Shown here: positions 60,001 through 61,670 of the stretch, piece by piece
How the letters are laid out: every line of letters starts with the position of its first letter
How positions within the stretch are numbered: the first letter of the stretch is position 1
Sequence record: AF125520
Reading direction: 5' to 3' (one strand)
Source of the DNA: Escherichia phage 933W
Length of the DNA stretch: 61,670 nt
Program-made: the position numbers

Positions 60001-61670
60001 TAAGCCTGATCATCTGATTCAATCAGGCAGTTAACATGACATTCCGCAATCACGCCACCGGGTTCTCCTTTCCATTTTTGGCAAACAAAAACTCCTGTTA
60101 AATTGCCGTGCTGGTTAACAGATGTATGCCCTACGATGTAGCTTCCTTTAGTTGCTTTCTCTGCCTTTTCACGCAGTGCCTGATAATTAATTTCGCTCAC
60201 TTCGAACCTCTCTGTTTACTGATAAGCTCCAGATCCTCCTGGCAACTTGCACAAGTCCGACAACCCTGAACGGCCAGGCGTCTTCGCTCATCTATGGGAT
60301 CGCCACACTCGCAACAATGAGTAGCAGATGGGGCATTACTATCGGATTTGTATTTTTGCAGGGAGAGATTGCGCTGCAATTCTTCGATTTCAGCGGCGTT
60401 GTCGATGATATCTGCCATTTTCCTTTCCTTCAGGCATGAAAAAAGGAGCCGAAGCTCCTTTGGTTTTAGAATTCGAATTGCCTTGCCCGCAGGCTTTTCA
60501 GCATTGGTCTGGCCCGCTGAACTACGAAACTCGACTGGTCAAGCCGTGCCGCCTCTCTCAGTAGCACATCTCTGTTCTTCGTCACCATGTAGATGGTCTC
60601 AAACGCAATGTCATACAGCTTGTTCGTGTATGAGGAGTTCAGCTCTTTCATGATCGGATACAGGTGTTTGCTGAGGTCCTGGGCTTTTTCCATCCAGAGT
60701 TGCATGTAGCAGAGGAGGATGATTTCCTCGTCTGTGAATTGTTGCTGTGGTTCTGCTTGTGCCGACTGCATGTTGCGAAGTTTCTTTTCGCACTCGATGA
60801 AGTATCTGCGTATCTGTCGGCCTTTTTCGTTACGCTCTACCATCGCCGTTTCTTTGGCTGTATCGAGGGTAAGGTGGTAGTCTTTTTTCCCTCGCCCATA
60901 ACCTATTTCCCGTTTCTGGGAAATAGCTATATAGTCCTGATTTTCAACGAATCCGTACTCTTCAATACGTTCTGTAATCCACGATGCAAAGCGTTTACCT
61001 ACTCCAAGAAAAGTATGTAAATCACGGGCATTAACGAGAAGAGTGGTTTCGTTGGCGATAGTGCCGTTGAATACGGGGATGCGTTGACTGGTCATGATGA
61101 CCTCCTTATTTGTTTAGTTTATAACCGCCAGTTAGTAGCTGGCGGTCGGGTGTCAACTGAGCCAAATAAGAAGCTCTGGGCATATTCCCCTTGCGGGTGT
61201 TGTATTACGCCTCTCCACCCGACCTTTGTACGGATGTAACTATGCCAAATTGCAGGCATAAAAAAGCCGCAAAGCTATCGGGTGCGGAGACCGCTTATTT
61301 GTTCAGTGCGGTCAGTATGCGATAGCTCTGGAGGATTTGTCAATCAGCGGAATATTGATGAACGGGTAACGGTAAATGCCTCATCCAGAAAATTAACGCA
61401 AATTCGCATCGCAAACTTGCGTTAATTATCTGAAATATCAAGTTAAATCCCCTTAAATGTTTGGGGCACTATTGGGGCAAAATGTGGTTGTTTGGGGCAC
61501 TATTGGGGCAAAATGTGGTTGTTTGGGGCATATTTGGGGCAAAAAAGAACGTATAAAGAACGGTGTAAAATTGATTTCTTCATGGTCAAAATGAGGTGTA
61601 ACAGATTGAAAAATATATGCTCTTGGACGATCTTCGGTAATTCTGTGTTTTTAATGCTTCATGGTTTCAA

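Follow-up and report, generated by a model that had tools for sequence, protein, structure and literature searches.

The two ends of the 933W genome are most likely the two arms of the attP site of a phage that integrates into wrbA, with the heptamer TGGGGCA as the arm-type site of its integrase (Int). Judging from sequence comparison, the repeats near the right end of the genome and a pair of the same heptamers at the end of int are very probably the sites that Int grips on both attP arms. This reading is supported because Int has an arm-binding domain and because the heptamer pair is conserved as DNA across the family on both arms, with fixed spacing and beside differing cores. An earlier note on this DNA had proposed Int arm-type sites on both sides of an att core. 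That proposal is supported by the heptamer repeats on both arms, the arm domain and the family conservation, but it needs amending in two respects: the unit is a heptamer pair with 11-bp spacing, not an octamer, and one of the 31-bp copies, the third, is a duplication specific to a lineage. In the searchable full-text literature, we found no binding or mutational study of Int with these heptamers and no description of arm sites for a 933W-type integrase, and the arm-site assignment appears to be undescribed there.

The attachment core and the ends of the record

The whole stretch of DNA that was analysed, referred to here as the window, is a 933W-type Stx2 phage genome in prophage order, 61,670 bp in length. 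It opens and closes with GTTTCAA, as the earlier note had pointed out, giving a 7-bp terminal redundancy; the circular form is 61,663 bp, as is CP111102 (EDL933-Stx). The right end is 100% identical to those of Stx2 converting phage I (AP004402) and Escherichia phage EDL933-Stx, and nearly identical to those of VT2-Sakai and many further Stx phages. The following features make up the core and its flanks:

61664-61670 (no strand): GTTTCAA overlap (crossover) segment of attP, right-end copy, placed by GenBank annotation, attL/attR and the rebuilt attB
1-7 (no strand): left-end copy of the GTTTCAA overlap segment, from the terminal redundancy of the record
61658-61663 (no strand): candidate core-type Int half-site C (TTCATG), suggested by an imperfect inverted repeat with 8-12
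8-12 (no strand): candidate core-type Int half-site C' (CATGT)

GTTTCAA is where the record is cut; this 7-bp segment was already known as the crossover site in wrbA, the gene into which the phage integrates. The earlier note had supposed a cut at the att core, and GenBank annotation, the VT2-Sakai prophage junctions, the bacterial site and the Sp5 junction all agree with it. The attachment site annotated in GenBank for both AP004402 and AP000422 is the same 6-7 bp. In VT2-Sakai, attL reads ccatcGTTTCAAcatgt and attR reads tcatgGTTTCAAtatgt (in longer reads, ccatcGTTTCAAcatgtctaagg and tcatgGTTTCAAtatgtccgtac, respectively), with mismatches that bound the 7 bp on either side. Because these differences between attP and attB, at positions -1 and +8 of GTTTCAA, each stay with their own flank in attL and attR, strand exchange can be placed within the 7 bp. 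The earlier note had advised joining the ends and comparing them with the bacterial attachment site. The attB sequence put together from the outer flanks agrees with intact wrbA at 100% identity, and it was matched over at least 80% of its length in 5,129 of 5,426 complete E. coli genomes. Finally, the attP junction of Sp5, a phage of the same type, was sequenced after excision (Asadulghani et al., 2009; PMC2669165, Fig. S5). The att core of the 933W-type phage was thus already known, both from annotation and from the sequenced attP junction. The symmetry between the two flanks of the core is short and imperfect: CAT(G)-N-7 bp-N-ATG(T), or CAT(G)-N9-ATG(T), a pattern that recurs at the differing cores of the relatives described below.

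Heptamer pairs on the putative attP arms

The int gene encodes a tyrosine integrase. At its N terminus is an arm DNA-binding domain (Pfam Arm-DNA-bind_2, residues 15-78, E 6.3e-26, which passes the curated cut-off), and its catalytic domain (Pfam Phage_integrase, residues 210-403, E 2e-17) includes R240, K275, R370, H393 and Y403, none of which varies in the family alignment. Since an Arm-DNA-bind_2 domain precedes the catalytic domain, Int is expected to have a second DNA target outside the core. The features that bear on this target are:

29-1363 (minus strand): int, tyrosine integrase, with Pfam Arm-DNA-bind_2 and Phage_integrase domains
72-89 (plus strand): P' arm heptamer pair, exact, in the final codons of int and ~64 bp away from the overlap
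61458-61544 (plus strand): 31-bp tandem array holding three heptamer pairs, found by Tandem Repeats Finder and labelled 'arrangement gg; region III' in AP004402
61462-61479 (plus strand): P arm heptamer pair 1 (distal), exact, in one of two identical 31-bp units
61493-61510 (plus strand): P arm heptamer pair 2, exact
61524-61541 (plus strand): P arm heptamer pair 3 (core-proximal), exact; family-wide, this pair lies 75-77 bp from a conserved block

Tandem Repeats Finder and a motif count bore out the description of the right end in the earlier note: a 31-bp unit is present in 2.8 copies with 96% matches, and the octamer TTGGGGCA occurs in it six times (at 61461, 61472, 61492, 61503, 61523 and 61534). 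The note had also placed the same octamer twice at 71-90, which holds for one copy, at 71-78; the other, at 82-89, reads CTGGGGCA and matches the octamer at 7 of 8 positions. The heptamer TGGGGCA, however, is matched without mismatch at 72 as well as at 83, and given the divergent octamer at 82-89 it is this heptamer that both ends have in common. Both int-side copies do fall inside the 3' end of the gene, within its last ~20 codons.

Counted singly over the whole window, neither motif is significant (7 octamers vs 3.4 expected, 13 heptamers vs 10.7). The pair TGGGGCA-N4-TGGGGCA has exactly 4 exact matches in the 61.7 kb, all on the plus strand (72, 61462, 61493 and 61524), against an expectation of 0.58 even with 2 mismatches allowed; 4 were reached in 0 of 100 shuffles. 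Within a pair, the heptamers are direct repeats 11 bp apart, approximately one helical turn, and the P arm pairs follow one another at 31 bp, approximately three turns; together, the latter (61462-61541) lie 123-202 bp from the overlap. Two small ORFs that run over the repeats (61457-61594 and 61461-61556) were set aside as repeat artefacts. Other repeats in the window are a 45-bp unit present twice at 39534-39624, with a collagen-like look (GCAGGCCCACAGGGACCAAAAGGAGAA), and a 12-bp unit present 4.4 times at 28911-28963 (AAATCGATCATG).

The P' arm pair was followed across a sample of 80 loci in other Enterobacterales, taken from one-genome-per-species contigs; their Int is 44-70% identical and their integration sites are different. 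In these loci, the last 100 bp ahead of the end of the int match hold 140 occurrences of TGCCCC, against roughly one per 100-bp bin elsewhere. At the int 3' end, the pair is exact in 60 of the 80 and has at most one mismatch in 72, whereas its 4-nt spacer and its flanks are variable, and no other feature of the P' arm adjoining int is as well conserved. Variant heptamers are TGCCCCT in L089-L093 and TGTCCCC in Proteus L079. The pair is also found there, in the same orientation, in Stx2_EH2246, Klebsiella phage 2 LV-2017, Salmonella FSL SP-016 and vB_EcoS-613R10 (Int 43-68% identical).

Two observations argue that the P' pair is conserved as DNA. The two identical heptamers are translated in different frames, first as Ala-Pro and then as Met/Val-Pro-Gln, such that the conserved Int tail AP.(M/V)PQ is simply the two heptamers read in two frames; and in L090, L092, L010, vB_EcoS-613R10 and Rac the pair lies past the stop codon. 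Because the tail is missing where the pair follows the stop codon, the DNA site appears to dictate the tail, and constraint on the heptamers at the DNA level probably accounts for its conservation. A further, inverted TGGGGCA at 186-192 (minus strand) within int corresponds to Gln-Met-Gly-His codons of the catalytic domain. Since GGGGCA is kept there in only 27 of the 80 relatives, we take this copy to reflect coding conservation and not a site.

Candidate accessory sites, phasing of the P arm and alternative readings

Several further features lie near int or between the heptamers and the core:

1392-1691 (minus strand): xis-like gene (DUF1233 putative excisionase), from a domain match; annotated as xis in AP000422
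61545-61562 (plus strand): two direct AAGAACG repeats 11 bp apart, candidate Xis sites adjoining the last heptamer on its core-proximal side
61599-61611 (minus strand): weak IHF-like candidate TAACAGATTGAAA, with one mismatch to YAANNNNTTGATW
61619-61634 (plus strand): conserved P-arm block GCTCTTGGACGATCTT, ~30 bp from the core

The presence of an excisionase raises the question of which protein recognizes the heptamers, which might be part of attP and yet be bound by Xis or another accessory protein, not by the N-terminal domain of Int. On the P arm, the binding sites of Xis proteins are commonly direct repeats in tandem, spaced by about one turn, as in lambda and Gifsy-1, and the heptamers are likewise tandem and about one turn apart. 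In addition, the DUF1233 xis gene adjoins int in 933W and an excisionase gene adjoins int in all 5 relatives inspected; because Xis accompanies Int in these relatives, co-occurrence alone cannot assign the heptamers to one protein over the other. We nonetheless consider recognition by Xis quite improbable, for three reasons: the pair is most conserved on the P' arm near int, where Xis sites are unexpected; the dedicated arm-binding domain of Int needs a target; and Xis has a separate candidate repeat of its own in the two AAGAACG copies, core-proximal to the heptamers. AAG(A/T)(A/T)CG direct repeats are found at the equivalent place in SP-016 and Stx2_EH2246.

The conserved P-arm block is also present in L177-L197, L009, L011 and L123, attP sites with different cores. 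For IHF, 21 of 78 relatives (L014-L093) have the canonical consensus (WATCARNNNNTTR) at a fixed distance of 31-32 nt past the P' pair; the 933W P' arm has no match to it within one mismatch and has only an A/T-rich tract instead, which is a point against the proposed design of the arms.

With Int as the protein that recognizes the heptamers, the attP complex might be assembled as follows. The N-terminal domains of Int would bind the TGGGGCA heptamers, and the 11-bp and 31-bp spacings would place adjacent Int protomers on one face of the DNA. Each protomer, as in lambda, would hold an arm site with its N-terminal domain and a core site with its C-terminal domains, and Int would in this way link both arms with the candidate core sites, the short inverted CAT(G)/ATG(T) elements. 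The arms would be folded onto the core by bending or accessory proteins, and the candidate Xis and IHF sites, together with the conserved P-arm block, may serve in this role.

Far-arm heptamers in the same orientation were found in relatives for which both arms could be read, although in varied arrangements:

FSL SP-016: a single pair, at a distance of 196 bp from its P' pair
Stx2_EH2246: three heptamers, spaced by 11 bp and placed 113-141 bp ahead of a 21-bp duplication in this phage
L123 (metagenomic contig): two pairs
L161: degenerate copies only
Rac (E. coli K-12): TGGGGCA, then AGGGGCA-N4-AGGGGCA, ~110-140 bp from the 26-bp core

Klebsiella phage 2 LV-2017 has no heptamers at the other end of its record, which is probably not cut at att, and vB_EcoS-613R10 is a partial genome without the far arm.

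A scan of all 2.9 million IMG/VR viral contigs for two pairs separated by 9-30 nt (pair-N(9-30)-pair) returned only 21 matches. In all 21, the distance between the pairs is exactly 13 bp, equivalent to the 31-bp period, and the spacers represent 7 unrelated sequences. In 19 of them, the last heptamer is succeeded at 75-77 bp by the block GCTCYTGGRCGWTNTT, which stands before several differing cores; the remaining two matches lie near the end of their stretch. One of the contigs, L188, has P arm, core and int 3' end contiguous. Because the 13 bp are constant while the spacers are unrelated, the 31-bp period appears to be an old phased design and not merely a recent tandem duplication. In L191 (10398-10800) and L193, a P arm of the wrbA type runs, after CATGG|, into unrelated phage DNA (ead/Ea22-like) in place of GTTTCAA. 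We considered the junction, CATGG|AATGG, as a secondary att site, but its flank is other phage DNA and it is present in only one complete E. coli genome; it was taken as a probable rearrangement.

These results also bear on the possibility that the repeats have no function, those on one side being a recent tandem duplication and those on the other a by-product of coding conservation in the Int tail. The third 31-bp copy is indeed recent, being found in 23 of 216 E. coli records, and the int-side pair does lie within coding sequence, where AP.(M/V)PQ is conserved. However, identical heptamers are used in two frames and are placed past the stop codon in several relatives, the 13-bp distance is held constant over 7 unrelated spacers, and the 2.9 million viral contigs yield the double pair just 21 times, 19 times with the conserved attP block downstream, all of which makes an absence of function highly improbable. 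Least likely of all is the alternative raised in the earlier note, that the repeats are iterons for replication or partition: although tandem direct repeats with helical phasing look iteron-like, there is no adjacent rep or par gene (the neighbours are ant and the att core), lambdoid origin-type repeats are found elsewhere (13903-13980), and in 80 unrelated hosts, as well as in the defective Rac, the motif is associated with int and with prophage ends, so that we give this reading almost no weight. The repeats at 13903-13980 are four copies of a ~20-bp unit (CATCCCTCAAAACGAGGGA-like) in the pattern of lambdoid origin iterons.

Among phages in wrbA, the number of P arm pairs varies. VT2-Sakai and the O104:H4-type phages have 1.8 units, one 31-bp unit fewer than 933W; three pairs are found in the EDL933/86-24/Xuzhou21 lineage and two in most wrbA Stx phages. 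This distribution indicates that two P arm pairs are ancestral and that the third 31-bp copy, the minority form, is a recent lineage-specific duplication. The gene to the left of the repeats is:

60466-61095 (minus strand): ant, antirepressor gene near the right end

In the O104:H4-type wrbA phages, LPD38 and hok remnants replace ant further left, but the segment from ~61360 to the core is retained at ~96% identity. Because these phages keep the segment despite their different left genes, the repeats seem to travel with int and att and not with ant. The leader of ant has a GC-rich hairpin (CCGCCAG...CTGGCGG, 61121-61146) directly upstream of the ribosome-binding site, and a promoter-like TTGACA-18-CATACT (61314-61343, minus strand) is directed at the gene. 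A strong hairpin at 61386-61435 (mainly 61392-61428, with arms AATTAACGCAA and TTGCGTTAATT, extending to ~23 pairs) is conserved in those O104:H4-type phages that differ further left. Its minus-strand RNA, which has UUUUCU after it, is predicted to fold at -27.9 kcal/mol (z -5.9). The hairpin lies beyond attP and downstream of int on the minus strand, the position of lambda sib/tI.

It is conceivable, though in our estimation rather unlikely, that pair number on the P arm is a tunable element, with an extra pair shifting how integration and excision are balanced, or how much Int is available. If this were true, pair number would affect the ease with which this Stx2 prophage is lost, transferred or re-integrated.

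The analysis adds a sequence-level map of the attP arms for an integrase family common to 933W-type Stx phages and Rac, comprising the arm-site heptamer, its pairing and phasing, and the conserved P-arm block. The map supplies concrete targets for studying the integration and excision of Shiga-toxin prophages, and the heptamer motif offers a simple marker for both ends of prophages in this integrase family.

Comparison with known attachment sites

By analogy with lambda, the arrangement is of an ordinary lambda-type design and would not surprise a specialist. Both systems use a tyrosine integrase with separate arm- and core-binding parts and a 7-bp overlap. In both, the int-side arm sites are in tandem, 10-11 bp apart, and abut or overlap the int 3' end (the lambda sequence was re-read for this comparison), and the sites on the other arm lie more than 100 bp out, with lambda P1 and P2 at 110-140 bp. 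Lambda attP also has sites for IHF, Xis and Fis. The differences lie in the details. The probable arm site is TGGGGCA in 933W, and that of lambda is (C/A)AGTCACTAT, and the N-terminal domain of 933W Int belongs to the Arm-DNA-bind_2 family, unlike that of lambda. The P' arm has two sites in 933W but three in lambda (P'1-P'3), whereas the 933W-type P arm has 4-6 direct sites in phased pairs where lambda has P1 and an inverted P2. In further contrast to lambda, attB of 933W lies inside a gene, wrbA, and the uninterrupted identity between attP and attB is 7 bp in 933W compared to 15 in lambda.

Rac (IntR/XisR, integrated in ttcA) is closer in its integrase, which is of the same family; the Int of vB_EcoS-613R10, near-identical to that of Rac, is 44% identical to 933W Int. 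Rac likewise has a heptamer pair after intR and heptamers on the attR side. It differs in that its core is a 26-bp identity in ttcA and its pair lies outside the coding sequence, and also in that some of its P-arm copies read AGGGGCA and that it lacks the GCTCTTGG block. We found no published site map for Rac in the searchable full-text literature.

The closest systems are the other Stx phages in wrbA (VT2-Sakai/Sp5, Stx2 phage I and the O104:H4 Stx2a phage), for which int, core and arms are 96-100% identical to those of 933W. For one of them, Sp5, excision and attP formation have been demonstrated (PMC2669165). The main difference is in the P arm, where most of these phages have two pairs (1.8 units) and 933W has three.
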